Shown here in pieces: positions 30,926-64,000 of a stretch of 64,000 bases of DNA (its first letter is position 1; each line of letters begins with the position of its first letter). This stretch comes from an uncultured Candidatus Saccharibacteria bacterium (GTDB lineage: Bacteria > Patescibacteriota > Minisyncoccia > UBA6257 > 2-01-FULL-56-20), in assembly GCA_964361095.1 (NCBI GenBank), contig CAYHZA010000004.1, forward strand, positions 2,236 through 66,235, in the 5' to 3' direction. The notes under the pieces were generated by a model. It made no database searches and was not told the DNA's origin. It saw only the letters and a list, made by a program, of their open reading frames with translations. The position numbers were made by a program, and so were the translations under genes.

Positions 30926-32458
30926 ATGCTTCTTAAGCTGTCAAAATATTCTTTATACCTTCCGCTTTTGAGTGTTGTCGTCGTCGCGACTTCGACATTT
31001 TTCCCTTTTATAGGCGGCAAGTATTATTTTTTCCGCGTTACCGTTGAGCTTGCGCTCATTTTCTTTATTCTATGGTGGGCGTTTGAAGCGCGTGAAGGCG
31101 AAGTGGAACGGTTGGTGCGAGGAGTAGCTGCGCGGCCGTTGTTTCTTGCCGTATCGCTCTTTGTCCTCGTATTTTTGCTCGCCTCGGTTTTTGCTTATGA
31201 CGCGAACGGAGCATTCTGGTCAAGTTTTGAACGAGGCGAGGGCGGTTTTCAGATGCTCCATTATTATATTTTCTTCTTTCTTTTAATGGCTCTTTTTCGC
31301 GAATGGAAAGAGTGGAAAATCGCCTTTTGGGTTTCGATTGTTGCGGCGTTGCTTATGATCGCGTATGGTCTCTTTGCTTATATTCAACTTACTCCATGGG
31401 GACATGGTATTTTTTGCAATACAGTTACCCTTGATGGCACTCCGCGAGAGCGATGTGTTGGTTTTATCACGCCGTATTCTTCCGGTGATCCGGCAAAAAT
31501 TCCTGGAACTCTTTGGGGGCTTTTATCCAAAGAACGTTTTCAGGGAGCGCTTGGGAATCCGGCATATGTTGCTCCTTATCTTATGTTCATACTTTTTTAT
31601 GTCGGGTATCTTTGGATTAAGGGTTCATGGAAGAAGGAGTGGATCAAGCATTCTATTTTCGCCCTCCTCGCGCTCGTATTTTTACTTTTCTTTGTTTTAA
31701 GCCAGACGCGAGGAGCGTTTCTTGGTCTTGTTGCCGCCTTTGGAATTTTTTTGATATATTTCTCGATTTTTTCAAAAAAGTACAGGAAATATACTATTGG
31801 ATTCATTGTTTTTTGTGTGGTGATTGGGGGATTATTACTCAATCATGGTTATCGCAAAATTCTTCCCGGATCACTCGCTCGGCCTGTCGATGGGTTTTTG
31901 GAGAGTCCCTTGGGAAGTCCGCTGAATCGTTTTTTAGATCTTGGTTTTTCCGAAGCTACCGCCAGAACTCGTTTTTGGACTTGGAATTCCGCATGGCAAG
32001 GATTTAAGGATAGGCCTATCTTAGGATGGGGACCGGAAAATTTCAGTACCGTTTTTGACCGGCATTTTGATCCACGCCACTTCGTTCCCGGCCAAAATTC
32101 GGAAACATGGTTTGATCGGGCTCATAGTGTTATTTTTGACTATTTGTCCGAGACGGGGCTTCTAGGACTCTTGAGCTATCTTTCCGTTTTTGTAATTTTT
32201 TACTGGCAATTTTTCCGCAGCGTTTCTCTTCGCACCATTCGAGGGAACCATGACCGTGAGAATCATGCGCATAGACATGAAATAATACTCATGGGGCTGG
32301 TTTTCGTCATGCCGGTCGCGTATCTCGTCCAAGGACTTTTTCTTTTTGACGTTCTTCCGATTTACCTCAACCTCTTTTTCTTCCTTGCTTTCGCTGATTA
32401 TCTTTTTTCCCAACATCATAATACAGGAAGTCGAACCTTGAATTCTCATATATCATGA
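30926..32458 (+). CDS. O-antigen ligase / Wzy-like polymerase family membrane protein
   Basis: About 12 TM helices and an LSQTRGAFLGLVAAFG Wzy_C-type motif. Confidence 0.6.
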   Translation: MLLKLSKYSLYLPLLSVVVVATSTFFPFIGGKYYFFRVTVELALIFFILWWAFEAREGEVERLVRGVAARPLFLAVSLFVLVFLLASVFAYDANGAFWSSFERGEGGFQMLHYYIFFFLLMALFREWKEWKIAFWVSIVAALLMIAYGLFAYIQLTPWGHGIFCNTVTLDGTPRERCVGFITPYSSGDPAKIPGTLWGLLSKERFQGALGNPAYVAPYLMFILFYVGYLWIKGSWKKEWIKHSIFALLALVFLLFFVLSQTRGAFLGLVAAFGIFLIYFSIFSKKYRKYTIGFIVFCVVIGGLLLNHGYRKILPGSLARPVDGFLESPLGSPLNRFLDLGFSEATARTRFWTWNSAWQGFKDRPILGWGPENFSTVFDRHFDPRHFVPGQNSETWFDRAHSVIFDYLSETGLLGLLSYLSVFVIFYWQFFRSVSLRTIRGNHDRENHAHRHEIILMGLVFVMPVAYLVQGLFLFDVLPIYLNLFFFLAFADYLFSQHHNTGSRTLNSHIS

Positions 32459-33144
32459 CGCTGCGCACTATCAAACAAATTATTGCCGCAGTGCTTGTTT
32501 CGATGATTTTAGGGATTGCCTATTATGGCTCATATCTTCCCCTTAGAAAATCACAGGCGTTTATTGTCGCTCTTCGAAGTCCGGGTCCCGTTGCTACGTT
32601 TGATGATTTTAAGAAAGTTTTTTCGGTTCCGCTTGATGCTCCATCGCCGATCGGTCAAGAAGAGTTGGTGCGGAATTTCGCAAATAATATTGTGAATGTC
32701 GTAAACCAACAAGGGACCAATCCAAAACTGACCGAAGAGGCCATCCAGCACCTTGATTCGTATTTTACCCCTATTCTCGAGAGGGGACGCGGATTAAGTT
32801 TTGCCCAAAATTTATATATCCTTGGGGCGTTAAATGAACTTGCTCTTTTTAAAACGCGCGATGTAAAAAATGGCCAGATACAGTTGCGATATCTTGTTGC
32901 CGCAAAAAATTATTTTTCTCAAGGTTTTGCCCTGGGTCCGAAGAGGCCACAATTTCTTTATGGTATGTTCGATGTAACAAGGGCGGAATATGATATCCTA
33001 CGCGCTCAAGGTCAAAAACAGGAAGCTGAGGCAAAAAAACAAGAAGCAGTAAAAATTGGAAAACAGATTTTGAATCAGTGGCCTACGGACGAAAAAACGC
33101 AAAAGGCACTTACGGAATTTTTGAATCATACTTTGACTAAATAG
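32455..33144 (+). CDS. hypothetical membrane-anchored protein
   Basis: 229 aa with one N-terminal TM helix. No recognisable motifs. Confidence 0.5.
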   Translation: MTLRTIKQIIAAVLVSMILGIAYYGSYLPLRKSQAFIVALRSPGPVATFDDFKKVFSVPLDAPSPIGQEELVRNFANNIVNVVNQQGTNPKLTEEAIQHLDSYFTPILERGRGLSFAQNLYILGALNELALFKTRDVKNGQIQLRYLVAAKNYFSQGFALGPKRPQFLYGMFDVTRAEYDILRAQGQKQEAEAKKQEAVKIGKQILNQWPTDEKTQKALTEFLNHTLTK

Positions 33145-33167
33145 TCATAGCGTGGTATTAACATTGG

Positions 33168-34175
33168 ATGAAGAAAGCCCTTATTTTTGGAGTGACCGGC
33201 CAGGATGGAAGCTATCTTATGGAACTTCTTTTGGCGAAGGGGTATGAAGCTCATGGCGTGATTCGCCGAGCATCAACGTTTAATACCGGCCGAATCGATC
33301 ATCTCTATAATGACCCGCACGTGAACGATGCCGGGGCGCCGCGCATGCATCTTCACCATGGCGACTTGGCAGATGCGAGTACGATAAGAAAATTAATTTA
33401 TAAAATCGGTCCGGATGAAATATATAATCTTGGGGCACAGTCGCACGTTCGGGTTTCTTTTGATATTCCGGAATATACGGCGAATATTGTCGGATTAGGA
33501 GCGTTGCGTCTTCTTGAAGCTATTAAAGATTATGAAGAACAGATGGGGAAAAAGATTAAATTTTACCAGGCTTCGAGTTCGGAGATGTTTGGCGGGGCTC
33601 CTCCTCCCCAGAACGAGGAAACAAAATTTTATCCCCGTAGTCCTTATGGAATCGCGAAGGTTTTCGCATATAACACAACGCGAAATTATCGGGAGGCCTA
33701 TGGAATTTTTGCATCCAACGGAATTTTATTTAACCACGAGTCTGAACGGCGCGGAGAAACGTTCGTGACGCGGAAAATAACGCGCGGTATCGCTCGCATT
33801 AAGGCCGGTTTGGATAAAAAAATATACCTCGGGAATCTCGATGCTCGGCGTGATTGGGGGTATGCCCCGGAATACGTTGAGGCGATGTGGCGTATGTTGC
33901 AACAGCCCGAACCGGACGATTACGTCATCGGTACAGGGGAGTCGCACACGATCCGTGAGTTCGTAGAACTCGCGTTTCGTCATGCGGGTTTGCCGGATTG
34001 GGAAAAGTATATCGGTATTGATCCGCGTTACTATCGCCCAACCGAGGTGGAGCATTTAGTGGCCGATTGCACGAAAGCGAAAACAAAAATAGGATGGGAG
34101 CCTAAAACAAAATTCAATGACCTCGTGAAAATCATGCTCGAGGCGGATTTAAAGGCTCATGGATTTAAAAACTAA
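33168..34175 (+). CDS. gmd: GDP-mannose 4,6-dehydratase
   Basis: [46 protein letters not shown] and full-length GMD. Confidence 0.9.
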
Positions 34176-35106
34176 AAAAATTCTCGTAACCGGCGGACAT
34201 GGTTTTTTGGGTAGGCATTTAGTGCGCCGATTATCTGAGATTAATGAGGTTTCTGAATCCCAACTTTTTATTCCTGATGCTCAAGAATGTGACCTGCGAA
34301 GATGGGAAAACTGCGTTCGAGTTGTTAAGGGAATTGACGTAGTGATTCATTTAGCAGGAAAAGTGGGGGGTATCGGTTTTAACGAAGAAAAGCCTGCCGA
34401 GCTTTTTTACGACAATATTGTTATGGGTGTTCAATTGATGGAGGCGGCACGCCAAGCGAACGTCCAAAAATTTGTTGCACTTGGAACGATTTGTTCGTAT
34501 CCTAAGCTTACCCCTGCGCCCTTTAAGGAAGATGATATTTGGAACGGTTATCCCGAAGAGACAAATGCTCCCTATGGTCTTGCTAAAAAGATGCTCTTGG
34601 TGCAAGCACAGGCGTATCGTTCGCAGTATGGGTTCAACGCCATTACCATCTTTCCCGTTAATATGTATGGCCCGGAAGATAATTTTGACTTGGCAAGTTC
34701 CCATGTTATTCCGGCGATTATCCGTAAGGTTGCGGAAGCCAAGGATCAAAATCAAAAATCCATCAGCGTATGGGGAACGGGAGAGCCAACTCGTGAGTTT
34801 ATCTACGTAGAGGATGCCGCGCGGGGAATTATTTTAGCTACGGAGTCTTATGATAAACCGGAACCGGTTAATCTTGGATCGGGCGTCGAGATTTCTATTA
34901 AAAATTTGGTGCATCTTATCTGTGAACTTATGGAATTTCGCGGTGAGGTTGTATGGGACAATTTACGGCCAGACGGTCAGCCCAGGAGGCTTCTTGATGT
35001 GACGAGGGCTGAAAAAGAATTTGGTTTTCGGGCAGAAATGGATTTCAAAGAAGGTCTAAAGAAAACAATTGGATGGTGGGTCGATCAACACCTTAAAAAA
35101 CATTAA
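34159..35106 (+). CDS. fcl: GDP-L-fucose synthase
   Basis: [26 protein letters not shown] and a C-terminal ...[20 protein letters not shown] match GDP-4-keto-6-deoxymannose epimerase/reductase. Confidence 0.8.
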
Positions 35107-35124
35107 TCATTATTTATAACTATT

Positions 35125-35814
35125 ATGTCGCAGAAAGTGTATCCCGAATGGAGCCTCGTAGGATTTGCCGATGATGAATTGACGGCTCAGCAAATTAAAA
35201 AAATCATTGATACGCATGGCGTTCGCAATGTTGTTGAAACGGGAATTTTTGAGGGGAAAACAACGAATCGTTTCCGATTGATGGGAGTTAACGTCATCGG
35301 TGTTGAGATCAATCCGGAATATGCAGAGAACTCTAAGACTCTCATTGAGCGCGAAGGAGGTAACGTTGAGATAATAAAAAAATTCTGGGAGACGAACGAA
35401 AAGACACTTCTTGATTCGTCGGTCGTAAAAATCATATTAGGAAATAGCCCGGATGTTATGAAGACGGTCGCTCCCATCCTTCAGAAAAACGGTCTTACGC
35501 TTTATTTTCTCGATGCGCATTGGGGGGATTATTGGCCGATTCGCGACGAGATAGCGGTGCTCCAAAACTATGATAATCTTATTATTATAGCGGATGATTT
35601 TAAGGTGCCCGGAAAGGATTGGGGCTATGTTTCTTATAAAGGAAAGGATTTAGATTGGCATTATATTGAAGATGTTGTAAATGGTTTTAAGAAAAAATAC
35701 CGCTACTTTTATTCCCGAGAATTGAGCGAAAAGAGCGCATTGCACGGCAAGATTTATATTTTTATTGGGCCTATTGCCGATACGCTCGAGAATTTCGACG
35801 GCGAGGGCGAATAG
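35125..35814 (+). CDS. putative class I SAM-dependent (sugar O-)methyltransferase, CmcI/TylF-like
   Basis: VVETGIFEGKTT...VIGVEINPEY resembles the TylF/CmcI fold. Confidence 0.4.
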   Translation: MSQKVYPEWSLVGFADDELTAQQIKKIIDTHGVRNVVETGIFEGKTTNRFRLMGVNVIGVEINPEYAENSKTLIEREGGNVEIIKKFWETNEKTLLDSSVVKIILGNSPDVMKTVAPILQKNGLTLYFLDAHWGDYWPIRDEIAVLQNYDNLIIIADDFKVPGKDWGYVSYKGKDLDWHYIEDVVNGFKKKYRYFYSRELSEKSALHGKIYIFIGPIADTLENFDGEGE

Positions 35815-35822
35815 CGGCAATT

Positions 35823-36770
35823 ATGTTTGGCAACCATACAAAAATCTTGGTCGTAGGTGAAACTGGATTTTTGGGAAAACGCCTTGTAAAACGTCTTGCC
35901 AGAGATGGTTACACGTACGTAGTTGGGTCTTTGGATACCGGCTTGGACCTTCGGGATGCGTATGCCGTTGAGGCATTTTTTAAGAAGGAAAAACCGGAAG
36001 TCATTATGAATTGCGCCGCGTATGTGGGCGGTATTAAATTTAACGCAGAACATGAAGGAGAGATTTTTTATAACAATACGCTCTTGAACCTCAATTTGCA
36101 GGAGGCGGCTCGGAAATATGGGGTGCGCAAACTTATTAATCCGATTGCAAATTGTTCTTATCCCGATGTAGCACAGAAAGACTTTAAGGAATATGAATGG
36201 TGGGATGGACCTCTGCATCCCTCGGTGATGGTATATGGGTTTACCAAGAAGGCGACTTGGGTGAATGCATATGCCTATTTTAGGCAGTATGGCATACAAT
36301 CAACCCACCTTTTAATTCCAAATATGTATGGCCCCGAAGATCACTTTGATGAAGTGCGCTCACATGCGATGGGAGCTCTGATTATGAAAATTATCAAAGC
36401 GAAAGAAAAAGGTGAACCTCATATTGATGTATGGGGGAGCGGGAGTCCGGTGCGCGAGTGGCTCTACATTGATGATTGCGTGGATGCTTTTGTAAGGATT
36501 TTGAACATTGATACCGGTATCGAGCCGTTGAATATTGGGCAGGGAATTGGGATATCCATCAAAGAAATGGCAGAGAAGATATGTTACGTTGTCGGTTACG
36601 AAGGGAAGCTTGTGTTTGACGCTACTCGGCCCGATGGTGCCGCATATAAAGTTATGAATATCGAGAGAATGAAAAAAATTTTGAATTGGATGCCGCCTAC
36701 TTCTCTTGACCAAGGTATTCGCGAGACCGTTGCGTGGTATTACGACAACGTCGTGCATAAGGCACAATAA
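35823..36770 (+). CDS. NAD-dependent epimerase/reductase, Fcl-like paralog
   Basis: KILVVGETGFLGKRLVKRL and an extended-SDR architecture related to the gene at 34159-35106. Confidence 0.7.
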   Translation: MFGNHTKILVVGETGFLGKRLVKRLARDGYTYVVGSLDTGLDLRDAYAVEAFFKKEKPEVIMNCAAYVGGIKFNAEHEGEIFYNNTLLNLNLQEAARKYGVRKLINPIANCSYPDVAQKDFKEYEWWDGPLHPSVMVYGFTKKATWVNAYAYFRQYGIQSTHLLIPNMYGPEDHFDEVRSHAMGALIMKIIKAKEKGEPHIDVWGSGSPVREWLYIDDCVDAFVRILNIDTGIEPLNIGQGIGISIKEMAEKICYVVGYEGKLVFDATRPDGAAYKVMNIERMKKILNWMPPTSLDQGIRETVAWYYDNVVHKAQ

Positions 36771-36773
36771 ACT

Positions 36774-37607
36774 ATGATGTCCGCATTAACCCATGAGCAC
36801 ATAAGAGACCTTGAGCATACGGCAAAGAATATACGCCGCACAATTTTGGAAATTATTTTTCGTGCTAAGTCTTCGCATATCGGTTGTTCTTTGTCGGCGG
36901 CAGATATTCTTACTGCGCTTTATTTTAATGTTATGAAAATTGATCCTCGTCATCCCCAAAAAGACGATCGTGATCGTTTGGTTATGAGTAAGGGTCATGC
37001 GGTTTCGGGACTCTATGCCGCCCTTGCCGAGCGGGGATTCTTCCCCCAAGAGAAATTAAAAGAATACGGCACCGAAGGAACCAACCTTGCGAGTCACGTG
37101 GTTCGCGGTTCCGTTCCGGGTACCGAAACAAGTAATGGTTCGGGTGGGCACGGTCTTTCTTTGGGGGTCGGGATCGCATTAGCTTTGCGGAATAAAAAAA
37201 ATAACACACGAGTTTTTGTTCTTTCCGGTGACGGGGAATTACAAGAAGGTTCCGTATGGGAAGCGCTTCTTTCCGGAGCAACCCATGTTCTCGATAATCT
37301 TACGTTGATTGTGGATCGGAATCGCTTTCAAGACGGACAGGATGGCAATGGTACGGATCAGATTTTAGCGCTTGAACCTCTTGATAAGAAATTTGAAGCT
37401 TTCGGCTGGGAGACCGAGACGATAGACGGACATAGTTTTATTGAACTTATTCCCGCTCTTATGCGCCACAGTAAGCGTCCCCGAGTTATTATTGCAAATA
37501 CCATAAAAGCAAAAGGTGTCCCTTTTATGGAAGGTAGACCGGAGTGGCACGGCAAATGTCCCGACGAAGATCAATATAATCTTGCGCTTAAAGAATTGGC
37601 ACATTAA
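36774..37607 (+). CDS. transketolase, N-terminal (TPP-binding) subunit
   Basis: HIGCSLSAADILTALYF...SKGHAVSGLYAALAERGF...GSGGHGLSLGVG matches split transketolase subunit A. Confidence 0.85.
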   Translation: MMSALTHEHIRDLEHTAKNIRRTILEIIFRAKSSHIGCSLSAADILTALYFNVMKIDPRHPQKDDRDRLVMSKGHAVSGLYAALAERGFFPQEKLKEYGTEGTNLASHVVRGSVPGTETSNGSGGHGLSLGVGIALALRNKKNNTRVFVLSGDGELQEGSVWEALLSGATHVLDNLTLIVDRNRFQDGQDGNGTDQILALEPLDKKFEAFGWETETIDGHSFIELIPALMRHSKRPRVIIANTIKAKGVPFMEGRPEWHGKCPDEDQYNLALKELAH

Positions 37608-37614
37608 ACCAACC

Positions 37615-38529: not shown

Positions 38530-38532
38530 CAT

Positions 38533-39621: not shown

Positions 39622-39624
39622 GGT

Positions 39625-41630: not shown

Positions 41631-41654
41631 GTGGTTGTTTAAATCTGAATTATT

Positions 41655-43681: not shown

Positions 43682-43695
43682 TTTTTTATTTATAT

Positions 43696-46097: not shown

Positions 46098-46121
46098 TGT
46101 GTTTTTCTCAATTTGTCGTGA

Positions 46122-50532: not shown

Positions 50533-50536
50533 AAAC

Positions 50537-51523: not shown

Positions 51524-51531
51524 TCTCAAAA

Positions 51532-53702: not shown

Positions 53703-53709
53703 CCGAATT

Positions 53710-54720: not shown

Positions 54721-54757
54721 TTTTGACATTCTTTGCTATGTCTTTTAAGCTCTAATA

Positions 54758-55474: not shown

Positions 55475-55476
55475 CT

Positions 55477-56079: not shown

Positions 56080-56151
56080 ACCCCGTTACTTCCTGAGTAG
56101 AGGCGATAGGATTTTTTTAAAAAATAATTCAATGCGGCAACCCGAAGGAAT

Positions 56152-56721: not shown

Positions 56722-56776
56722 AAAAGTGGCCGCACAGGATAGTTGCCCGTGCGGCCATGATGAGTTGCTGTTGTTT

Positions 56777-57502
56777 CTAGACCTCCGTCTCGATTCTCGG
56801 CTTTGCGTCGCCGTAGACGCCACGGATGATCTTCGAGATCCCGTCCGCCTCGCGCTTCCAGGTGCGGGCGAAGCTCTTGGAATTCCGGAGTGTCGCGACG
56901 CGTCCGGCGTATCTCTCCGGAGCTGCTTCGAGAAGCACCTTCTCGCTCTCGAAGACATTGATGTGAAGGCTCCGATACCTCGGGTTTCTTGTGAGGTGTT
57001 TCGCGATGTAGGTCATGGTTCGTGGCATGTGGACGCCTACGGTAACTAAGCCCACACTTTCGAACTTTTCATCTCTTGCGAGCTCGAAGATGTTCAGAAG
57101 TTCGCGGCCGGTGTTCGAAGGACCCGGGAGAGATTGCTCTTGAGGCCAAGACCAAATTCCCAAGGAGAGGGACGGTCTGATATGTGCCGTGAACTTCTCA
57201 GCCATCACCGTGCTTTCGGTTGGCCCATCGACGCTCTTTAGGTAGTCCGAACGATCACCATACGCGCAGACGACCACCCCTGGTTTGTACTGGCTGTTGT
57301 ATGCGGTGCAGAGGATGATGCCGGCCTCAAGATTCATCTCGCCGCCGCCCACCATGCAGTAGGGATTTTTGTCGTCTGCGGGAACGCGGACAGGCAGATG
57401 TGCTGAGTTCTGACCACAGACTTCCAGGTCTTCGGTCAGAACCCACGGGCCGTCTTCACTCACGCGTTGGATTCCTCTTCCGAGAATTGCCAAAAGATCC
57501 AA
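56777..57502 (-). CDS. hypothetical protein (possible LOG/SLOG-like Rossmann fold)
   Basis: 241-aa ORF in a GC-rich patch on the opposite strand to the flanking heptose genes. CMVGGGEMNLEAG and LPGPSNTGRELL weakly resemble LOG-family GGG and PGG-GT-EE motifs. Confidence 0.4.
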   Translation of the reverse strand: MDLLAILGRGIQRVSEDGPWVLTEDLEVCGQNSAHLPVRVPADDKNPYCMVGGGEMNLEAGIILCTAYNSQYKPGVVVCAYGDRSDYLKSVDGPTESTVMAEKFTAHIRPSLSLGIWSWPQEQSLPGPSNTGRELLNIFELARDEKFESVGLVTVGVHMPRTMTYIAKHLTRNPRYRSLHINVFESEKVLLEAAPERYAGRVATLRNSKSFARTWKREADGISKIIRGVYGDAKPRIETEV

Positions 57503-57629
57503 GGAGCACCTCCTCTTCTTTAGGGGTTACCAAGCTTTGTTTCTCAAGAAATTCAACTTATATAATATATGAAAATCCATACTTTGTCAACTATTCCAAT
57601 TATATTTTTCCTGCTATAACTAGAGCATT

Positions 57630-58352
57630 ATGGTTACGCAGGCAGTTATCGCGGCAGGGGGATTGGGGACGCGTCTCCGGCCGCTTACGGATACGATTCC
57701 CAAAGTAATGGTTCCGATTCTCGGTAAGCCGCTTCTCGAGCATCATATTGAGCAGTTCAAAAAACACGGCGTTAAAGAATTTTTCTTTACGTTGCATTAT
57801 CTGCCGCAAGTTATTATTGATTATTTTGGCGATGGCACGAAGTGGGGAGTGAAGGTAAATTATTTCATAGAAAAAAAACTGCTTGGTACCGCGGGAGGCA
57901 TAAAAAAATTCAAAGATAAACTCGATGAAAGTTTTTTCTATACGCTCGGCGATATTTTCAGTTTAGTGGATTATTCGAATGTCTCACGGGTATTTTCCGA
58001 AAAACCGGACGCAATCGGCATGCAGAGAATCGGGAAAACGGAGAAGTTTGAGAATATCGATCTCGTTGAGGTTAATGACGAAAAATTATTTTTGAAAATT
58101 CATCCCAAGCCCAACGTTTCAAGGCCACCAAGTTCCTATCTTCTGCGCGGTTCTTTTCTTTTGAACAAAAAAATACTTTCGTACATACCCGAAGACTTGG
58201 AGTATGCGATGACGACTCAGCTTTTGCCGAACGTTATCGCGCGTGGTGAGAAATTCTATGGATATGAATGTGACGATTATTCACAGGGGATTGATACTGC
58301 CGAGAAATTAAGAGAAGTTGAGGAGTATTTAAAAAATCACCTTATAAAATAA
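57630..58352 (+). CDS. hddC: D-glycero-alpha-D-manno-heptose-1-phosphate guanylyltransferase-like sugar-phosphate nucleotidyltransferase
   Basis: AVIAAGGLGTRLRPLTDTIPKVMVPILGKPLLEHHIE matches NTP_transferase motif G-x-G-T-R-L-x-P-L-T...K-P-M at a size consistent with HddC. Confidence 0.75.
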   Translation: MVTQAVIAAGGLGTRLRPLTDTIPKVMVPILGKPLLEHHIEQFKKHGVKEFFFTLHYLPQVIIDYFGDGTKWGVKVNYFIEKKLLGTAGGIKKFKDKLDESFFYTLGDIFSLVDYSNVSRVFSEKPDAIGMQRIGKTEKFENIDLVEVNDEKLFLKIHPKPNVSRPPSSYLLRGSFLLNKKILSYIPEDLEYAMTTQLLPNVIARGEKFYGYECDDYSQGIDTAEKLREVEEYLKNHLIK

Positions 58353-58392: not shown

Positions 58393-58821
58393 TTACTTGC
58401 TCGAAATGAGCCACACGACGACCGCGGCTCCTATGAGTCCCACTGCCTTTTTTGGCGAAAGGGATTCTCCATAAAAAAGAATGCCGCCGAGCGCCGTTGT
58501 CGAAATTGCAACGACTCCGGCGATGGGCATTACGATTGATACTTCGGCCTCGCCGAGTCCTGCAACGAGTGGCTGGAAGATGATATGGCCGGCAATGTTC
58601 AGTACTCCCGCGAGGAGGGCGAATCCTCCCGTAATCGACAAAAGAAGAGCAATATTGGCTTGGTTTTTCATGAACGGCACGCAAAGCAGTCCTGAGGCAA
58701 AGCTCATGATGAAGACACGTGTGATTGGCGGGATGGCGCCACACTGTTTCATGACGAGCGGCCATGTACCCCAGAAAAGGCCGGCTACGATTGCGAGAAA
58801 AAGAGCCGATGTGTTTTTCAT
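58393..58821 (-). CDS. small DMT/EamA-like 4-TM membrane protein
   Basis: ORF 58393-58860 trimmed to MKNTSALFLAIVAGLFWGTWPL..., with four hydrophobic helices. Confidence 0.45.
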   Translation of the reverse strand: MKNTSALFLAIVAGLFWGTWPLVMKQCGAIPPITRVFIMSFASGLLCVPFMKNQANIALLLSITGGFALLAGVLNIAGHIIFQPLVAGLGEAEVSIVMPIAGVVAISTTALGGILFYGESLSPKKAVGLIGAAVVVWLISSK

Positions 58822-58903
58822 TATTTCACCTCCGTGAAGTGCGTCGTGAATGTATCTCATAAGTTTTCAATGTGCGAATGGATAATAATGTTTTTCTATT
58901 ATT

Positions 58904-59776
58904 TTGTCAAATGAAGGTTTTTTTGCTATCGTTTATGGTATGCCGTATCCAAAAGTAAGCGTTTTGATTACGACGTACGAGAGGCCCCGATTCATCGATC
59001 GCGCGATTGGAAGCGTTTTGCAACAGACATTTACCGATTGGGAGATTGTTGTTGTGGATGACAGCGCAAGTGATGCGACCAAAAAGGCGGTCGGTGATTT
59101 TTTAAAAAAAGATAATCGCATTCGGTATTTTCATCGCGAAAAGAAGGGAACGATCGCGCAAGCCTCAAATTTTGGTCTTCGGGAGGCTCGCGGAGAATAC
59201 ATCGCGATTCTTGATGATGATGATTTTTGGAGTGACGAGAGCAAGCTTGGGGAACAGGTTTCTTTTTTGGATTCGCATCGGGAGTACGTCGGGTGCGGGG
59301 GAGGTTTTGTGACGATTGATGAGCATGGGAAAGAAACGACAAAAATTTTGAAACCCGAAACAAATCACGCGATTCGCCGTCATGCGCTTATGGCAAATCC
59401 CATGGCAAACTCAACGACGCTTTTCCGCTTGAGCGCGGCGCGTCATGTCGGCTTTTACGACGAAACACTCCCGCAATTCGCCGATTGGGATTTTTGGCTG
59501 AAGATGGGATTGTCGGGAAAACTTCACAATGTCTCGAAATATTACGCCTCGTACATGATGTGGCAGGAAGGCGCTTCTTTCGCGCACCAAAAGGTAAATG
59601 CCCGCTCCGCGCTTCGTATCGTTCGACGGTATCGCGGCAAATATCCCGGATTTATTACGGCTTATATGATGGCATGCCTTTATTTTTGCTACGCGCATCT
59701 TCCGGAAGCGATTAAAAAAATCACAAACCCCATTCTTTCGCGCGCAAAGAAATTTCTTTTCGGTGTTCGGTTGTAA
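58904..59776 (+). CDS. GT2-family glycosyltransferase
   Basis: KVSVLITTYERPRFIDRAIGSVLQQTFTDWEIVVVDDSASD and DDDD (DxD). The start may instead be the internal Met near 58940. Confidence 0.8.
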   Translation: MSNEGFFAIVYGMPYPKVSVLITTYERPRFIDRAIGSVLQQTFTDWEIVVVDDSASDATKKAVGDFLKKDNRIRYFHREKKGTIAQASNFGLREARGEYIAILDDDDFWSDESKLGEQVSFLDSHREYVGCGGGFVTIDEHGKETTKILKPETNHAIRRHALMANPMANSTTLFRLSAARHVGFYDETLPQFADWDFWLKMGLSGKLHNVSKYYASYMMWQEGASFAHQKVNARSALRIVRRYRGKYPGFITAYMMACLYFCYAHLPEAIKKITNPILSRAKKFLFGVRL

Positions 59777-59790
59777 GTTATGCCGCCGAA

Positions 59791-61281
59791 CTATTGGATC
59801 GTGGAGGTTTCGCGGGGCGATTCCGGGTGTATGACCAATCTTATTTCTTCAAGTGTTGGTTCTTTGAAGCGATAGAGGAGTAGGAAGTATATGGCTACGG
59901 AGAGGCCGATATTCATAAATACATTCATTCCGGATATAAGAAAAAGCCATGATGCCGGTGCCATAAGGAGGGTTGCCCCGATGATCTTTTTGAGATGCGG
60001 AAGAATTTCGAAGTTTACGTTTTTTCTTGCAATGTGCCAAAGATAGCGGTTGCTCACGAGTTGCGCGATGAGCGTCGCGACTGCCGAACCGGCAATGCCG
60101 AATCGGGGGATAAGGAGTATATCCAAGGCGACATTCAAAAATCCTCCGATCGCGGCATTTACCACAAGGTTTCGTTGTCGGTTATACGCAAACACGACAT
60201 TGCTCAAGATGACCGCCGGAAAATCAACGAGGAGCGTGAGCATCAGAATTTGAAACGAGAGCGCGCCGGGAGCGTAACTCGCTCCAAATGTGGCAGTTAT
60301 AAATTGTCGCCCCAAGATAACACCTCCGATGGCTGTGGGGATAGCGATTGAATATGCCAGTGTTACAATCCGCTCAATAGCCCGCTTCATTTTCTCTGGA
60401 TTTTCGGTGGCGAATCTTGTAAGGCTCGGAAGAACACTCAAAGCAAGAATACCGGGGAACATATATATGACTTGAATAATCCTGTTCGCGGCGGAATAAA
60501 GGCCGACGTCTTCGGTGGTGCCGAGCCAACCGATGATGAGAATATCCGTATTGATCATTAAGATGCCGAGGAGTCCCGATACGGCGAACGGCCACGCGGC
60601 ACTCAAAATAGGCCGCATGAGTTTAAAGGAGAAGTTTGAAAATATTCCCTCCAGGTTTTTCCTCAGGGCGTAAAAAGTCGCGGCCATGCCGATACCCGTT
60701 CCGATCGCATAGGCAACGGCGAACGATTTTACCGTTGGATGAAGATAAAGGAAAAGAAAGCCCACCACGACGATACAAATATTCGTCAAAATAAAAAGCC
60801 CCGCTTCCACTTCCATCTTTTCAAGCGCTCGATTGACCGAAAAGCCGAATTGGCGCATGGCATCAAAAATCATTATCAAGGCGACAATAGGGAAAATTGC
60901 TTTTGCTTCCTCGATTGTGGTTACGTGCGGAGCTATAAAGATTACAATATAGGTTCCCAAGGAAAGAAGTGCGAGCTTCAAGAAAAATGAAGTGGATATT
61001 ATTTCCGCAAGATGTTTTTTGCCCTGGTGTTTTGATGCTTCTTTCGTGATAATCGAGCTTATGCCAAAATCGATGAAGATGGTGAGAAAAGCCGCGAGCG
61101 TGATTGCATAGGAGAACGTGCCCCATCCAATCACTCCTAAAACTCGAGCCGCATATATGATGACCGCGGCGCGAAGGAGACGTCCTCCAAAGTCGCTTAC
61201 CGTAAGCCAAAACGTATTTTTTGCGACCGTTTGGCGAGTGGTCTGATTCGTGAAAAGCAACGCCTTTAATTTTTTGAACAT
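59791..61281 (-). CDS. Wzx-like polysaccharide flippase (MOP superfamily)
   Basis: 496 aa with about 14 TM helices and an N-terminus VAKNTFWLTVSDFGGRLLRAAVIIYAARVLG typical of polysacc_synt proteins. Confidence 0.75.
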   Translation of the reverse strand: MFKKLKALLFTNQTTRQTVAKNTFWLTVSDFGGRLLRAAVIIYAARVLGVIGWGTFSYAITLAAFLTIFIDFGISSIITKEASKHQGKKHLAEIISTSFFLKLALLSLGTYIVIFIAPHVTTIEEAKAIFPIVALIMIFDAMRQFGFSVNRALEKMEVEAGLFILTNICIVVVGFLFLYLHPTVKSFAVAYAIGTGIGMAATFYALRKNLEGIFSNFSFKLMRPILSAAWPFAVSGLLGILMINTDILIIGWLGTTEDVGLYSAANRIIQVIYMFPGILALSVLPSLTRFATENPEKMKRAIERIVTLAYSIAIPTAIGGVILGRQFITATFGASYAPGALSFQILMLTLLVDFPAVILSNVVFAYNRQRNLVVNAAIGGFLNVALDILLIPRFGIAGSAVATLIAQLVSNRYLWHIARKNVNFEILPHLKKIIGATLLMAPASWLFLISGMNVFMNIGLSVAIYFLLLYRFKEPTLEEIRLVIHPESPRETSTIQ

Positions 61282-61371: not shown

Positions 61372-61833
61372 ATGACAAAAAATAAGAAAAAAATAGTGGT
61401 TACGGTAAGCGGGGGATTCGATCCCATCCACGTAGGGCATGTTCGGCTCTTTAAAAAAGCAAAAGCACTGGGAGATGTTTTGGTTGTAATTTTAAACAAT
61501 GATAACTGGCTTAAGAAGAAGAAGCACGTGATCTTTATGCCCGAGAAGGAGCGTAAAGAAGTAATCGAAGCTTTGTCGAGTGTTGACCGTGTGGTGCTTA
61601 CGAGGCACCCAAAAAATCCAAAAGACATGAGTGTGTGCCGGGAGATCCAAGAGATTAAACCCGATATTTTCGCAAATGGCGGAGACAGGCATCATCATAA
61701 TACTCCGGAGATGCCGATATGTCGGGAAATAGGATGTAGGATGGTTTTTAACGTGGGGCACGGAGGAAAGGTGCAATCAAGCTCATGGCTTTTGGAGAAA
61801 TATCTTACGGCGGTAAAAAAGACAAAACAGTGA
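61372..61833 (+). CDS. cytidylyltransferase-fold nucleotidyltransferase (RfaE domain II / HldC-like)
   Basis: VVTVSGGFDPIHVGHVRLFKKAKALGDVLVVILNNDNW...ANGGD matches the (T/H)xGH nucleotidyltransferase motif and the ADP-heptose synthase domain II layout. The ORF was trimmed to MTKNKKKIVV. Confidence 0.65.
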   Translation: MTKNKKKIVVTVSGGFDPIHVGHVRLFKKAKALGDVLVVILNNDNWLKKKKHVIFMPEKERKEVIEALSSVDRVVLTRHPKNPKDMSVCREIQEIKPDIFANGGDRHHHNTPEMPICREIGCRMVFNVGHGGKVQSSSWLLEKYLTAVKKTKQ

Positions 61834-61847
61834 CCAGAGGAGATTTT

Positions 61848-62765
61848 TTATATTGTTGCGGCTGTTCTTGAAATACCTTCTTCAAATTTTACGCTTGGAT
61901 TCCAGCCGAGTATTCTTTTTGCTCGTTGTGCGTCAAGCGAAATGCGATAAACTTCTCCTTTCCGGTAGGGCGCGTAGTTTGGTTTTCCCGTAAAACCGGT
62001 TACGTTTGCTATGGTGTCAAAAATCTTCTGGTCGCTTATGGTTTTTCCCGAGCCAATATTTACCGCGTCGTTTTTTCCGCGTTTTGTCGCAAGAAGATTC
62101 GCATGAGCGATGTCTCCTACATATACGTAATCTCGGCTTTTTGTGCCGTCGCCAAAGATCGTGGGCGTTATGCCTTTTTTCATTAGTCCGCTAAAGATCG
62201 CGACAACGCCGGCTTCTCCTTTCGGATTCTGGCGCGGTCCATAAACGTTCGCGTAGCGTAATATGAAATAATCAAAATTGTGCATTCTTCCGTAGTATCT
62301 TATGGTGTCTTCGGCGAGTTTTTTCGAGAGTCCGTACGGAGAAAGAGGGAGGATCGGCGTTGATTCATTCGCCGGTATTTTTCTTGGTTCTCCATAGAGA
62401 GCTCCGCCGGTTGAGGCGAAGATAAATTTTTTATTTTTTCCTGTTCCATAGCGGGCGAACTGCGCAAGAAGGTTCGCTGTTCCCAGAATATTTACGGTAA
62501 GCGTGGGCAGGGGATCGCGGAGCGATTTTATGATTTCTACGACTGCCGCGTGATGGTTCACGACTTCCGGCTTTTCTTTTTTGAAAATCGTTTCTATCGC
62601 GCGGGCGTTCGTGATATCCGCTTTATAAAAAACGGCTTTTGGATTCAGGTTCTTGCGAAATCCACTCGAGAGATTATCAACCACAATGATCCGATGACCT
62701 GCGTTTATATACGCGTCGACAATATGAGAGGCGATAAACCCCGCTCCTCCGGTAACGAGAATTTT
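61848..62765 (-). CDS. NAD-dependent epimerase/dehydratase (UDP-hexose 4-epimerase-like)
   Basis: MKILVTGGAGFIASHIVDAYINAGHRIIVVDNLSSG. The start was trimmed to the Met overlapping the upstream stop. Confidence 0.8.
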   Translation of the reverse strand, partial: KILVTGGAGFIASHIVDAYINAGHRIIVVDNLSSGFRKNLNPKAVFYKADITNARAIETIFKKEKPEVVNHHAAVVEIIKSLRDPLPTLTVNILGTANLLAQFARYGTGKNKKFIFASTGGALYGEPRKIPANESTPILPLSPYGLSKKLAEDTIRYYGRMHNFDYFILRYANVYGPRQNPKGEAGVVAIFSGLMKKGITPTIFGDGTKSRDYVYVGDIAHANLLATKRGKNDAVNIGSGKTISDQKIFDTIANVTGFTGKPNYAPYRKGEVYRISLDAQRAKRILGWNPSVKFEEGISRTAATI

Positions 62766-64000
62766 CATTTCTGGTTTATAAAGAATGATTTGAACGTCTT
62801 GAGAATAATAGCGCAATCGAGGATAAGCGAGCGATTTTTTAGGTAGTATATGTCGTATTGAAGCTTTTCCTGCGTGTCGTCCACCGAGGCGCCATAGCGG
62901 TAGTTTATCTGGGCCCAACCGGTGATTCCCGGCTGTATCAAATGGCGGATCTTATAGTGAGGAATTTCTTTTTCGAGTAATGCAACGAATTCCGGCCGTT
63001 CCGGACGCGGACCAACGAACGAGAGCTCTCCTTTGATTACATTAACAAGCTGGGGTAGTTCATCAAGGTGTGTATAACGGAGAAATCCGCCGATAAACGT
63101 GGTGCGGTTATCCTTTGTGTCTGCCCATTGGGGGCCATCTTTCTCGGCGTCTTCGCGCATGGTTCGGAATTTATAGAGGACAAAGGATTCGTTCCATATC
63201 CCTATCCGTGCCTGTTTGTAGATCACCGCTCCCGGTGATGTTATTTTGATGAGTATAGCAATGAGAAGTTCGAGAGGGAGTAGCACGATACCGATTACAC
63301 ACCCGGCGACAAATTCAAGTCCTCGTTTCAGGTCGTCATAAAATTTTTTCTGCCCGATTTTGTTTTCGAGAAACCATGCCTCTTCGAGATCCGCGAGGGG
63401 AAGTTTTCGGAATACCAATTCATAAAAACTGGGAAAATCGACAATTTCAACACCGGATGCCAAGAGTTCATAAAACGCCTTGGTGAGCTTCAAATTTTTC
63501 TTCAGTTCGCTGGGGATCACAATGAGATTGATATGGTGGGTTTTTACAAGTTCGTGGAGGTGCCCGCTTTCGGGATCCGCGAGCCCCTTCTTGAGCCAGA
63601 GGCGTATTTCGTAACCGATTTGGGGGTTTTTACCGAGTGTTTCGGCGATTTCATTGATTCGTGGCCCCTCGCCAAGCAGGAGGATTTTATTGAGGCCCTC
63701 GCGGAAGCTTGCGCGGATGTTAAAGTTTTGTCGCCACCATGCTTCGATTACGGTAAACACAATAAGGAAGATAAATAAATTTCTCCTTGGCGCGATGCCG
63801 AAGACGGGGATAAGATAAAAAAGGGCGATGGTAAGAAGCGCGTTTACCGCGAGGGCAAGCGCGAGCGTTTTTAAAAAATCAATATTGTTTCGAAGGCGTG
63901 GAAGATCATAAAGCCCGGCGATATAAAAAACGATGATCCAGAGTACGAATACGAAGGAAAAAGGAGCCAGGTGACCCCCGATAAACTCTTCATAAAAATT
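62765..64000 (-). CDS. polyprenyl-phosphate sugar-1-phosphate transferase (WbaP/PglC-like initiating transferase), 5' end outside window
   Basis: C-terminal bacterial sugar transferase domain (ELPQLVNVIKGELSFVGPRPERPEF...GITGWAQ). The frame stays open and hydrophobic from 63761 to the window edge (...LIPVFGIAPRRNLFIFLIVFTVIEAWW). The track M at 63760 is a GTG inside the gene. Confidence 0.8.
   Translation of the reverse strand, partial: NFYEEFIGGHLAPFSFVFVLWIIVFYIAGLYDLPRLRNNIDFLKTLALALAVNALLTIALFYLIPVFGIAPRRNLFIFLIVFTVIEAWWRQNFNIRASFREGLNKILLLGEGPRINEIAETLGKNPQIGYEIRLWLKKGLADPESGHLHELVKTHHINLIVIPSELKKNLKLTKAFYELLASGVEIVDFPSFYELVFRKLPLADLEEAWFLENKIGQKKFYDDLKRGLEFVAGCVIGIVLLPLELLIAILIKITSPGAVIYKQARIGIWNESFVLYKFRTMREDAEKDGPQWADTKDNRTTFIGGFLRYTHLDELPQLVNVIKGELSFVGPRPERPEFVALLEKEIPHYKIRHLIQPGITGWAQINYRYGASVDDTQEKLQYDIYYLKNRSLILDCAIILKTFKSFFINQK

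Follow-up and report, generated by a model that had tools for sequence, protein, structure and literature searches.

In the loci that encode O-antigens, capsules or S-layer glycans, the polymerase genes are normally the most variable. The O-oligosaccharyltransferases PglL, WsfB and WsaA/WsaB are described as combining a Wzy_C domain with a fused or adjacent TPR domain (PMC2943079), virenose of Coxiella serves as the model for a route to a 6-deoxy-3-C-methyl-hexose (PMC3539893), and the lincosamide pathway leads to a GDP-octose. The window analysed here, a 64,000-nucleotide stretch from a Patescibacteria/CPR bacterium of Hainich groundwater (a Liptonbacteria-like member of the Parcubacteria), holds a locus which, judged by its genes, resembles O-antigen, capsule or S-layer-glycan loci in its build. 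A membrane protein (Wzy1) and its neighbour have the same Wzy_C plus TPR architecture as the oligosaccharyltransferases, a putative C-methyl sugar route would follow the plan proposed for virenose, and the predicted enzyme families of its "heptose" module parallel those of the octose pathway.

Glycan-biosynthesis genes, approximately 35 of them, run continuously from 30926 to 64000 when all main ORFs are scanned (Table 1), beginning immediately 3′ of the housekeeping gene rny. Families were assigned by Pfam, NCBIfam and PDB searches, and nearly all calls of an earlier sequence-only reading were reproduced: gmd/fcl with two Fcl-like paralogs, a split transketolase (Transketolase_N and Transket_pyr plus Transketolase_C in adjacent genes), three further epimerase/dehydratases (all extended SDRs, including the GalE-like protein), a GT10 enzyme, a TylC3-like C-methyltransferase, tandem GT4s, two GT2s, a CgeB-like protein, a nucleotide-sugar dehydrogenase with SDR and Gfo/Idh/MocA oxidoreductases, two Wzy_C proteins, Wzx and WbaP. 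Its description of a Wzx/Wzy-type heteropolysaccharide locus with GDP-fucose chemistry is supported. An ENA assembly and two Logan runs, each independent, show the identical arrangement, which excludes misassembly. In the compared locus L083 the WbaP-like gene, cut by the window end, continues to approximately 64102 (445 aa in full) and is followed by a further GT2 gene fragment; 33 kb is therefore a lower bound. Since related genomes are single contigs of 0.84-0.91 Mb, the locus accounts, at 33 kb or more, for some 4% of the genome; it had been called unusually elaborate for a small genome, and it is indeed large for the lineage.

Table 1. Segments and genes of the glycan locus, with the family matches on which the assignments rest.
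Feature	Position	Strand	Evidence or remark
HEAD	30926-35106	+	lineage-conserved
Wzy1, Wzy_C-domain membrane protein	30926-32458	+	PF04932, 66 bits
TPR-like partner of Wzy1	32455-33144	+	N-terminal membrane anchor, all-helical TPR-like domain
gmd	33168-34175	+	TIGR01472, 501 bits (cutoff 415)
fcl1, GDP-L-fucose synthase	34159-35106	+	NF047922, 287 bits
MIDDLE	35125-47528		12.4-kb cassette; gene content varies between species
229-aa protein, class I methyltransferase-like (weak)	35125-35814	+	marginal matches
fcl2, Fcl-like paralog	35823-36770	+	NF047922, 256 bits
Split transketolase, N-terminal ThDP-binding subunit	36774-37607	+	PF00456, 114 bits; NF004559, 247 bits
Split transketolase, C-terminal subunit	37615-38529	+	PF02779 and PF02780; NF004559, 167 bits
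Extended SDR epimerase/dehydratase/reductase	38533-39621	+	PF01370, 134 bits
GT10-family glycosyltransferase	39625-40701	+	PF00852, 57.5 bits (cutoff 23.9)
fcl3, Fcl-like paralog	40674-41630	+	NF047922, 229 bits
NDP-hexose 3-C-methyltransferase, TylC3/TcaB9 type	41655-42920	+	full Methyltransf_13/23/14 architecture
SAM-dependent methyltransferase (probable)	42920-43681	+	Methyltransf_23, 21.6 bits (cutoff 27)
GT4 glycosyltransferase a	43696-44904	+	PF00534, 77 bits
GT4 glycosyltransferase b	44901-46097	+	PF00534, 88 bits
Wzy2, second Wzy_C protein	46122-47528	+	PF04932, 39.6 bits
TAIL	47557 to beyond 64000		gene order recurs in other CPR contigs
CgeB-like glycosyltransferase (Glyco_trans_1_2)	47557-48600	+	PF13524, 114 bits
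GT2 glycosyltransferase a	48597-49553	+	PF00535, 106 bits
Extended SDR epimerase, first gene of operon	49624-50532	+	PF01370, 173 bits
GHMP sugar-phosphate kinase, HddA-like	50537-51523	+	GHMP_kinases_N and _C
Nucleotide-sugar 6-dehydrogenase (UDP-glucose/GDP-mannose dehydrogenase family)	51532-52842	+	TIGR03026, 294 bits, above cutoff
Classical short-chain dehydrogenase/reductase	52839-53702	+	adh_short, 180 bits
Gfo/Idh/MocA sugar oxidoreductase	53710-54720	+	PF01408, PF22725, PF02894
Transaldolase, dedicated to sugar operon	54758-55474	+	TIGR02134, 347 bits (cutoff 282)
SIS-domain ketose-phosphate isomerase, GmhA-like	55477-56079	+	SIS_2
HAD-IIIA sugar-bisphosphate phosphatase, GmhB-like	56152-56721	+	NF006506, 141 bits (cutoff 178)
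DUF218-like conserved protein	56777-57502	-	PF02698, 22 bits, sub-threshold
Sugar-1-phosphate nucleotidylyltransferase, HddC/ManC-like	57630-58352	+	PF00483, 94 bits
EamA-like small membrane protein, 155 aa	58393-58860	-	PF00892, 40 bits
GT2 glycosyltransferase b	58904-59776	+	PF00535, 108 bits
Wzx-type flippase, MOP superfamily	59791-61281	-	Polysacc_synt, 114 bits
Cytidylyltransferase-family nucleotidyltransferase, RfaE domain II/TagD-like	61396-61833	+	PF01467
GalE-like 4-epimerase	61848-62768	-	TIGR01179, 190 bits (cutoff 262)
WbaP-like polyprenyl-phosphate phosphoglycosyl transferase, initiating enzyme	62765-64000	-	Bac_transf, 209 bits

Three segments can be told apart when neighbourhoods are viewed 10 kb to each side of the query genes. 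Directly after rny, 49 of 80 related species-level genomes carry Wzy1, 43 the TPR-like partner, 33 gmd and 29 fcl; downstream of this head, the genes of the 80 loci fall mostly into singleton clusters. The tail (two glycosyltransferases, a nine-gene sugar-nucleotide operon, a GT2, Wzx, the GalE-like epimerase and the WbaP-like transferase) keeps its gene order, from the CgeB-like enzyme to WbaP, in five other CPR contigs (L094, L095, L096, L099 and L100) at 41-78% identity, similar to that of core genes. In two relatives head and tail lie on one contig with different middles, the loci measuring approximately 37 and 43 kb. Head and tail are thus vertically conserved within the lineage, and we read the whole, with a probability of roughly 0.7, as a resident cell-surface glycan locus that occupies a fixed chromosomal site and whose ends are conserved while the middle can be exchanged.

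The sequence-only reading had taken the entire 33 kb for a horizontally acquired accessory island inserted at about 30.9 kb, which we now consider very improbable. The GC content of the locus is slightly below that of the upstream DNA (0.452 vs 0.474) and its GC3 is more heterogeneous, the middle (0.42) differing from the core (0.50; p = 3e-4). The head is equally low (0.41), so that composition is no clean mark of the middle as foreign; the tail (0.50) equals the core, and a sharp step at 30.9 kb is absent. Neither an integrase nor flanking repeats or a tRNA were found at the locus, the nearest tRNA (24105-24191) being six core genes away. A Nitrospirota genome contains a module of five genes from these families in another order (transaldolase 68% identical, gmhA-like 63%, hddA-like 47%, others 30-36%), so that some of the locus may be exchanged across phyla, and the middle is not constant among relatives. 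The locus is nevertheless largely conserved and syntenic across many species-level genomes, the head in 33-49 of 80 and the tail in five contigs, with only the middle variable, and the whole-locus island is largely refuted.

Within the locus, gmd keeps its position in 33 relatives (70-84% identity). All three Fcl-like proteins score below the NF047922 equivalog cutoff of 500 bits. Fcl1 (212 bits to solved GDP-fucose synthases) has the full epimerase/reductase set T107, C109, Y136, K140 and H179 (E. coli numbering), identical in 30 orthologues. Fcl2, 35% identical to Fcl1, has Ala for Ser107 and retains Cys109 and His179. In Fcl3, 53% identical to Fcl1, Thr and Phe stand in place of the epimerisation residues Cys109 and His179. 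All six proteins of its type (five genomes and the window) lack this pair, and Fcl3 is a candidate 4-ketoreductase that would not epimerise.

The C-methyltransferase aligns over its full length with D-mycarose 3-C-methyltransferase (4rv9, 181 bits) and TcaB9 (approximately 155 bits) and retains C12, C15, C52 and C59 of the putative N-terminal zinc-binding domain; a 63% identical homologue lies directly 3′ of gmd in L041. Of the two further methyltransferases claimed earlier, the sub-threshold one beside it is probable, with 40-44% identical homologues in two loci, while the 229-aa protein is barely methyltransferase-like (E ~0.05-0.1; Pfam E 0.1-0.2, PDB 8ryd E 0.046) and had no orthologue in the 80 relatives' loci. 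The tandem GT4 paralogs are 41% identical.

The GT10 protein aligns with the solved alpha-1,3-fucosyltransferases FucTA, FUT9 and H. pylori FucT over the motif FSLAFENSxxxxYVSEK, its catalytic motif being genuinely of the GT10 type. The link to host mimicry drawn earlier is not supported: at least six loci of related CPR bacteria from groundwater or soil have homologues (70% identical in L012), and the catalytic domain forms 9,622 clusters at 50% identity in public data. In L012 the transketolase pair and the SDR are followed by one unrelated gene and then GT10, the SDR travelling with the pair. The C-terminal transketolase subunit, which comprises the pyrimidine-binding and C-terminal domains, starts as in the gene call of L001.

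The transaldolase gene, overlooked by the sequence-only reading, is followed after 2 nt by the gene for the SIS isomerase. That it and the transketolase pair are housekeeping pentose-phosphate genes inside the locus, contributing to the glycan only by supplying sedoheptulose-7-phosphate, we regard as possible but somewhat doubtful. CPR genomes usually retain the non-oxidative pentose-phosphate pathway, the transaldolase passes the equivalog cutoff for a bona fide transaldolase family and matches thousands of sequences at 66-75% identity, and either enzyme can make sedoheptulose-7-phosphate, the substrate of GmhA. However, transketolase N-subunit homologues in three relatives' glycan loci (L007, L012, L044) are only 34-42% identical, against approximately 70% for rny (L007, L012), which points to cassette genes and not orthologous housekeeping genes; other ThDP enzymes (E1_dh) fill relatives' cassettes; and the transaldolase accompanies SIS, HAD, GHMP-kinase and NTP-transferase genes in six of six homologue contexts, including that of Nitrospirota, which are expected to possess their own pentose-phosphate pathway.

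The GDP-heptose genes claimed earlier stand at family level, with scores below cutoff (GmhA 62 bits vs 209, HddA 174 vs 600, HddC 80 vs 300, GmhB as tabulated); heptose itself is an inference, and the module, equipped with a transaldolase of its own, might yield some other higher-carbon sugar. The HddC/ManC-like protein scores 114 bits with the mannose-1-phosphate guanylyltransferase model, and the RfaE/TagD-like protein 82 bits with TIGR02199 (cutoff 181), its slot holding other nucleotidyltransferases in relatives. The nucleotide-sugar dehydrogenase, missing from L099, is closest, among solved structures, to UDP-glucose dehydrogenase (4a7p, 231 bits; GDP-mannose dehydrogenase 129), and the Gfo/Idh/MocA protein to DgpA, levoglucosan dehydrogenase and similar sugar 3-dehydrogenases.

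Tail orthologues are 48-64% identical for the CgeB-like enzyme (same place, three contigs), 53-58% for GT2 a (three contigs; 31% in L096), 54-63% for the first SDR (all five), 65-71% for the kinase, 63-78% for the isomerase, 52-59% for GT2 b, 45-55% for Wzx (12 hydrophobic segments), 58% for the GalE-like protein (L096) and 56-59% for the WbaP-like enzyme, whose gene stop is overlapped by the GalE-like gene by 4 nt. Two minus-strand genes had been overlooked: the EamA-like ORF, a called gene in L083, and the DUF218-like gene (GC3 0.67), kept in size and strand in three contigs (40-56% identity). The window yielded neither a chain-length regulator (Wzz/PCP) nor an LCP ligase, and the GDP-mannose supply genes ManB and ManC had no unambiguous match.

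The two Wzy_C proteins show no similarity to each other detectable by BLASTP. Wzy2 (approximately 10 hydrophobic segments) has no orthologue among the 80 relatives and is a candidate repeat-unit polymerase. Orthologues of Wzy1 immediately after rny are 41-57% identical; its more than 1,200 homologues are named "O-antigen ligase family" by the sources. The AlphaFold model (pLDDT 87) has WaaL (7tpg) as its sole significant PDB fold match (E 1e-7), with no Wzy or PglL structure matched, and this match cannot separate ligase, O-oligosaccharyltransferase and polymerase. The partner gene, also overlooked earlier, shares its first 4 nt with the end of the Wzy1 gene. A Pfam scan of its product gave no match; its model (pLDDT 93, nine helices) matches TPR proteins weakly. 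Of 187 homologues, the named ones are all Patescibacteria and a few have TPR_14 or TPR_19 matches; P0015 and P0032 carry it fused to a Wzy1 homologue (681 and 695 aa, respectively).

For Wzy1 we favour a role as ligase or O-oligosaccharyltransferase over one as repeat-unit polymerase. We think it rather unlikely that it is a second or conserved-backbone polymerase, with a polymer that is either released as capsule/EPS or linked to peptidoglycan or a lipid through enzymes whose genes lie outside the locus. The Pfam domain shared with Wzy2 and the fold match would allow this, and the conserved gmd/fcl beside it could mean a conserved fucose-containing backbone; yet Wzy1 is among the most conserved genes of the locus, a TPR partner or fusion is described for O-oligosaccharyltransferases and not for Wzy polymerases, and the cassette-specific Wzy2 is already there.

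The chemistry of every proposed sugar is predicted from enzyme families, several scoring below equivalog cutoffs. The WbaP-like enzyme would start the repeat unit on undecaprenyl phosphate with a hexose-1-phosphate, probably provided via the adjacent GalE-like epimerase, and the cytoplasmic GT2, GT4, GT10 and CgeB-like transferases would lengthen it with several sugars. These would be GDP-L-fucose (gmd and Fcl1), a 6-deoxy-3-C-methyl-hexose (gmd, the C-methyltransferase and Fcl3), perhaps a sugar on which ThDP chemistry has placed a two-carbon branch (transketolase pair and SDR), and a heptose-type sugar from the transaldolase, isomerase, kinase, phosphatase and nucleotidyltransferase of the tail, tailored by its epimerase, dehydrogenase, SDR and Gfo-type oxidoreductase. 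Wzx would flip the unit, Wzy2 polymerise it, and the conserved Wzy1/TPR pair hand the glycan to its final acceptor. To our knowledge CPR cells have no LPS, so that this acceptor would most likely be a surface protein (S-layer or pilin), and the pair would then be a split O-oligosaccharyltransferase of the PglL/WsaAB type.

Genes are packed almost without gaps from directly downstream of rny to the end of the window, as judged from the ORF listing and its translation. Twenty-six of them follow one another on the forward strand (30926-56721), after which comes a block of mixed orientation. Families were assigned using Pfam, NCBIfam and PDB sequence searches, which reproduced almost all of the family calls of an earlier sequence-only reading. 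A Wzx/Wzy pathway set, comprising Bac_transf (209 bits), Polysacc_synt (114 bits) and two Wzy_C proteins, is found within the one locus, and both the Wzx/Wzy pathway logic and the rare-sugar chemistry proposed in that reading hold. This is a Wzx/Wzy-type surface-glycan locus of an ordinary kind, all of its families being known and no new mechanism being required. Two additional methyltransferases are weaker than had been claimed, their matches being sub-threshold or marginal. The genes that had been overlooked encode a transaldolase, a TPR-like partner of Wzy1, an EamA-like membrane protein and a DUF218-like protein.

Positions of the features discussed, in the window unless a relative is named; for the Fcl paralogs the NF047922 score is followed by the residues at positions 107, 109, 136, 140 and 179 of E. 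coli Fcl
Feature	Position	Strand	Remark
HaeII-type restriction endonuclease	326-1396	+	PF09554, 420 bits
SAM riboswitch	3589-3691	+	RF00162, 71 bits (gathering score 44.4)
Uracil-DNA-glycosylase-family ORF	4448-5074		
tmRNA	13079-13400	+	Tag peptide ANSNRVTAPAFAYA
IleRS ORF	15897-19526	+	1209 aa
Head	30926-35106	+	
Wzy1	30926-32458	+	
TPR partner	32455-33144	+	229 aa
gmd	33168-34175	+	
fcl1	34159-35106	+	287 bits; T, C, Y, K, H
Middle	35125-47528	+	
fcl2	35823-36770	+	256 bits; A, C, Y, K, H
Transketolase pair	36774-38529	+	
SDR	38533-39621	+	
GT10	39625-40701	+	
fcl3	40674-41630	+	229 bits; S, T, Y, K, F
C-methyltransferase	41655-42920	+	
Wzy2	46122-47528	+	
Tail	47557 to beyond 64000		
CgeB-like GT	47557-48600	+	
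Sugar operon	49624-58352		
Transaldolase	54758-55474	+	
DUF218-like ORF	56777-57502	-	GC3 0.67 (neighbours 0.45-0.55)
EamA-like ORF	58393-58860	-	155 aa
WbaP-like gene	62765-64000	-	Cut by window end; full length 445 aa
Middle of relative L101	10309-13865		
Middle of relative L102	8986-12558		
Sugar module of L098	5179-8717		Nitrospirota, GCA_040757335.1

A Logan contig contains the complete WbaP-like gene and, after it, a further GT2 gene, so that the locus exceeds 33 kb. This contig ends 450 nt past the WbaP-like gene, and the 3′ boundary of the locus was inferred from relatives. The EamA-like protein is encoded between the nucleotidyltransferase and a second GT2 (GT2b), and with GT2b it might make up a polyprenyl-phosphate-sugar synthase/flippase pair through which the glycan is decorated outside the membrane. 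The DUF218-like ORF differs from its neighbours in GC3; an ORF of equal size on the same strand (40-56% identity) occupies the equivalent position in three CPR relatives (L096, L099 and L100).

Exact protein matches put the window on a 70.7-kb contig from the 0.1-µm fraction of Hainich groundwater, and the locus has an identical arrangement in independent assemblies. A search with the rny protein returned 80 species-level relatives, all of them Patescibacteria/Parcubacteria, the closest named ones being Candidatus Liptonbacteria. Two relatives are assembled into one contig each (0.84 and 0.91 Mb), by which measure the locus makes up about 4% of the genome, and its earlier description as elaborate for a small genome is fair. 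Upstream are ordinary core genes (ArgRS, IleRS, TrpRS, RNase J, PGI, SecG, iPGM and RNase Y). The IleRS carries a phosphoglycerate-mutase-like His_Phos_1 domain (residues 529-690, E 1e-32) inserted between two tRNA-synt_1 segments, and the gene call of the source contig shows the same architecture. ARAGORN and Rfam agree on a tmRNA, and a SAM riboswitch lies 5′ of an ORF of the uracil-DNA-glycosylase family. The HaeII-type restriction endonuclease is encoded where the window begins, in DNA of low GC (0.42).

The window proteins were compared by tblastn with the 80 rny loci, all ORFs of which were clustered. Directly 3′ of rny, a Wzy_C gene is present in 49 of the 80 loci, the 229-aa partner in 43, gmd in 33 and an Fcl-type gene in 29; farther downstream, gene content consists mostly of singleton clusters. 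The 3′ half was examined through a transaldolase search, which yielded six homologue contexts. Five CPR contigs share a common order: CgeB-like GT, GT2, epimerase, GHMP kinase, (dehydrogenase), SDR, Gfo oxidoreductase, transaldolase, SIS, HAD, opposite-strand DUF218-like, NTP transferase and GT2, followed on the reverse strand by Wzx, epimerase and Bac_transf. Their tail proteins are 41-78% identical to those of the window, similar to rny itself (69-73%). Two of the five also bear the head, with different middles, in loci of about 37 and 43 kb. With head and tail conserved and the content between them differing, the locus has three parts (table).

Composition agrees with this division only in part, GC3 being 0.50 in the core genes and in the tail, 0.42 in the middle (p = 3e-4 versus core) and 0.41 in the head. 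As a decisive sign of transfer it was dropped, since GC3 is as low in the conserved head as in the variable middle. A repeat search revealed only similarity between paralogs (fcl1/fcl3 and GT4a/b) and no insertion scars. The sequence-only reading had proposed an accessory island beginning at 30.9 kb. For the locus as a whole this fails, because head and tail are syntenic among relatives, no integrases or flanking repeats were found at the locus, and the nearest tRNA, 6.7 kb upstream, is separated from it by six core genes. All that remains of the idea is an exchange of cassettes in the middle, which is variable and lower in GC3; the HaeII-type endonuclease region resembles mobile DNA more closely than the glycan locus does. 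The middle of one relative (L101) encodes a 4,6-dehydratase/epimerase-family SDR, an NTP transferase, a C-methyltransferase and an RmlC-like isomerase, and that of another (L102) a GT10, an E1_dh-type ThDP enzyme and a DegT aminotransferase.

Like the Wzx/Wzy-dependent O-antigen and capsule loci of, for example, enterobacteria, the locus combines a phosphoglycosyl transferase, Wzx, Wzy_C, nucleotide-sugar genes and several GTs in one array, and it has a fixed chromosomal position, content that varies among relatives and a lower GC in the variable part. Unlike the enterobacterial O-antigen loci, it possesses conserved sugar-pathway modules at both ends, and a ligase-like Wzy_C protein (Wzy1) inside the locus is its most conserved element; no orthologues of Wzy2 were found anywhere among the 80 rny loci. 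A further difference is that no Wzz/PCP or CpsC/D-type co-polymerase domain was detected in the main locus ORFs or in the upstream ORFs scanned. A chain-length regulator may be located outside the window.

Wzy1 has a Wzy_C domain (66 bits), approximately 11 hydrophobic segments and more than 1,200 homologues, which carry the name “O-antigen ligase family” in their source annotation. The sole PDB fold match of its AlphaFold model (pLDDT 87) is WaaL (7tpg, E 1e-7), a match that does not separate ligases from polymerases, and PDB sequence searches with Wzy1 and Wzy2 gave no matches even at E = 10. The WaaL-type H-X10-G motif was rejected as a ligase marker, since by eye its spacing occurs in both proteins. 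The partner of Wzy1, whose named homologues are all from Patescibacteria, has a single hydrophobic segment at its N-terminus and a repeat domain of nine helices that matches TPRs weakly; in two relatives it forms a single polypeptide with Wzy1. The head thus displays the architecture of the O-oligosaccharyltransferases, that is, a polytopic Wzy_C protein with a fused or adjacent TPR element. The same pairing is found in slg clusters and O-glycosylation systems (WsaA/WsaB of Geobacillus, WsfB of Paenibacillus, PglL of Neisseria, and PilO): PglL and WsfB bear a C-terminal TPR, while WsaB is without it and is adjoined by a small TPR ORF, WsaA (PMC2943079). The S-layer glycan clusters also resemble the present locus in having a WbaP/WsaP-type initiating enzyme with galE, and 6-deoxyhexose and heptose chemistry is known from S-layer glycans (PMC2943079). 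Unlike in those systems, to whose proteins there is no sequence-level match, the TPR partner is located downstream rather than upstream, and the G. stearothermophilus cluster employs an ABC transporter where Wzx/Wzy is found here.

The host is a CPR bacterium, a group of monoderm-like cells that, unlike enterobacteria, is not known to make LPS. From this, the conservation of Wzy1, the lack of Wzy2 orthologues and the architecture described for S-layer systems, we infer that Wzy2 would be the repeat-unit polymerase and the Wzy1/TPR pair the final transferase, its acceptor probably being protein.

The gmd product is a clear equivalog (TIGR01472, 501 bits versus a cutoff of 415). All three Fcl paralogs score below the 500-bit equivalog cutoff of NF047922; Fcl1 gives 212 bits against solved GDP-fucose synthases. 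They were aligned to E. coli Fcl, and the Ser/Thr107-Tyr136-Lys140 triad and the epimerisation residues Cys109 and His179 were compared; the reference is what we take to be the E. coli sequence, its length (321) and the five numbered residues being in agreement. The full residue set is found in Fcl1 alone and is likewise kept in 30 orthologues of it, while Fcl2 has lost Ser107. Both epimerisation residues are missing from Fcl3, as from each of the six Fcl3-type proteins seen, which makes it a candidate 4-ketoreductase without 3,5-epimerase activity.

The fcl3 gene adjoins that of the C-methyltransferase, for which the earlier call is confirmed by a complete TylC3/TcaB9 architecture: PF08421 (Cys4 zinc domain), PF13489 (SAM-binding) and PF08484 (Methyltransf_14), all above cutoff or significant. 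The protein aligns over its full length with 4rv9 (181 bits) and TcaB9 (approximately 155 bits), and C12, C15, C52 and C59 are present. In a related locus (L041) a 63% identical homologue is encoded immediately 3′ of gmd, which supports GDP-4-keto-6-deoxymannose as the predicted substrate. [quoted passage not shown] The Coxiella GMER keeps the epimerase residues whereas Fcl3 is without them, a difference that predicts a different stereochemistry.

The assignment of the GT10 stands on its catalytic motif, FxLxFENSxxxxYxTEK, and on PF00852 (57.5 bits versus a cutoff of 23.9); its sequence FSLAFENSQYPGYVSEK aligns with FucTA (9s6a), FUT9 (8d0o) and H. pylori FucT (2nzw). GDP-fucose is a plausible donor, gmd and fcl1 being in the same locus. 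Relatives of the N-terminal acceptor domain are few (about 15 full-length clusters at 50% identity), and the catalytic domain has 9,622 clusters at 50% identity. The host mimicry that had been suggested for this enzyme is not indicated, given the abundance of the catalytic domain and the presence of GT10 homologues in at least six related environmental loci.

Homologues of the transketolase pair are found in three more glycan loci of relatives, with an identity of only 34-42%, and another relative has an E1_dh-type ThDP enzyme in its cassette. The pair might plainly supply sedoheptulose-7-P. [quoted passage not shown] With this proposal and the ThDP enzymes of the relatives in mind, it is a reasonable guess that a two-carbon branch would be added to a GDP-4-keto sugar and then reduced by the adjacent SDR.

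In the tail, the transaldolase reaches its equivalog cutoff and is located inside a kinase/NTase/SIS/HAD module in all six contexts, one of them from Nitrospirota. The Nitrospirota module (L098) is part of a glycan and methyltransferase cluster, with a transaldolase that shares 68% identity with the CPR enzyme. The distribution suggests that the sugar module may have moved between these phyla. The genes previously read as GDP-heptose genes do belong to the GmhA, HddA, GmhB and HddC families and share one operon, as in the heptose pathway, but with 62 (cutoff 209), 174 (600), 141 (178) and 80 (300) bits, respectively, they are well below every curated equivalog cutoff. The operon additionally has the transaldolase, a UGDH-family dehydrogenase, an SDR and a Gfo-type oxidoreductase. 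To our knowledge the characterised heptose clusters contain none of these four, and a literature search revealed no transaldolase in characterised GDP-heptose clusters. The NDP-sugar dehydrogenase is nearest to UDP-glucose dehydrogenases and is missing from one relative; a metagenome scan with it returned generic homologues alone (28-39% identity), which were of no use for context.

The lincosamide thiooctose operon does have a transaldolase. Its sugar-nucleotide stage consists of LmbR, N, P, K, O, M, L, Z and S, of which LmbR is the transaldolase making octulose-8-P, LmbN/P/K/O are GmhA/HddA/GmhB/HddC-like and LmbM/L/Z are tailoring enzymes (PMC4351081, PMC12945683). Eight of these nine enzyme families (transaldolase, isomerase, kinase, phosphatase, nucleotidyltransferase, epimerase, UGDH-type dehydrogenase and Gfo-type oxidoreductase) are present here in one conserved operon, a parallel in family content alone. 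Unlike the lincosamide pathway, the operon has an SDR and no aminotransferase, and its setting is a surface-glycan locus rather than an antibiotic cluster. If the product were an octose, the dedicated transaldolase would build octulose-8-phosphate, and, with the SDR replacing the Lmb aminotransferase, the dehydrogenase/Gfo pair would lead to a deoxy-octose nucleotide. We consider a heptose product more likely than an octose. The Fcl-like C4-reductases and Gmd-like dehydratase could act on GDP-heptose, as their counterparts do in C. jejuni (PMC10680097). That the tail operon is the surface-glycan counterpart of the lincosamide GDP-octose pathway and, jointly, that the head is a split PglL-like O-oligosaccharyltransferase we consider improbable, with a chance of perhaps one in seven.

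For CPR bacteria a life attached to other cells is generally assumed. We know almost nothing reported of their surface chemistry, and a literature search on CPR surface glycans gave nothing specific. The locus provides a Wzx/Wzy-type system in this under-studied lineage, and rny followed by a Wzy_C gene is a simple marker for the equivalent locus in related genomes. Three sub-features merit experiments, namely the split O-oligosaccharyltransferase-like head, the epimerase-dead Fcl paralog and the transaldolase-containing operon; the targets for heterologous expression are the Wzy_C/TPR pair, the same Fcl paralog, the split transketolase and the sugar operon. The data suggest that a lineage with genomes probably smaller than 1 Mb devotes some 4% of its DNA to one glycan, and that the assembly machinery and two sugar pathways remain constant while a rare-sugar and transferase cassette of about 12 kb differs from one species to the next. 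Such a constant/variable pattern is commonly ascribed to diversifying selection in the case of O-antigen and capsule loci. Were both the octose pathway and the split O-oligosaccharyltransferase real, many Parcubacteria would decorate their surface proteins with an octose-containing, cassette-variable glycan.
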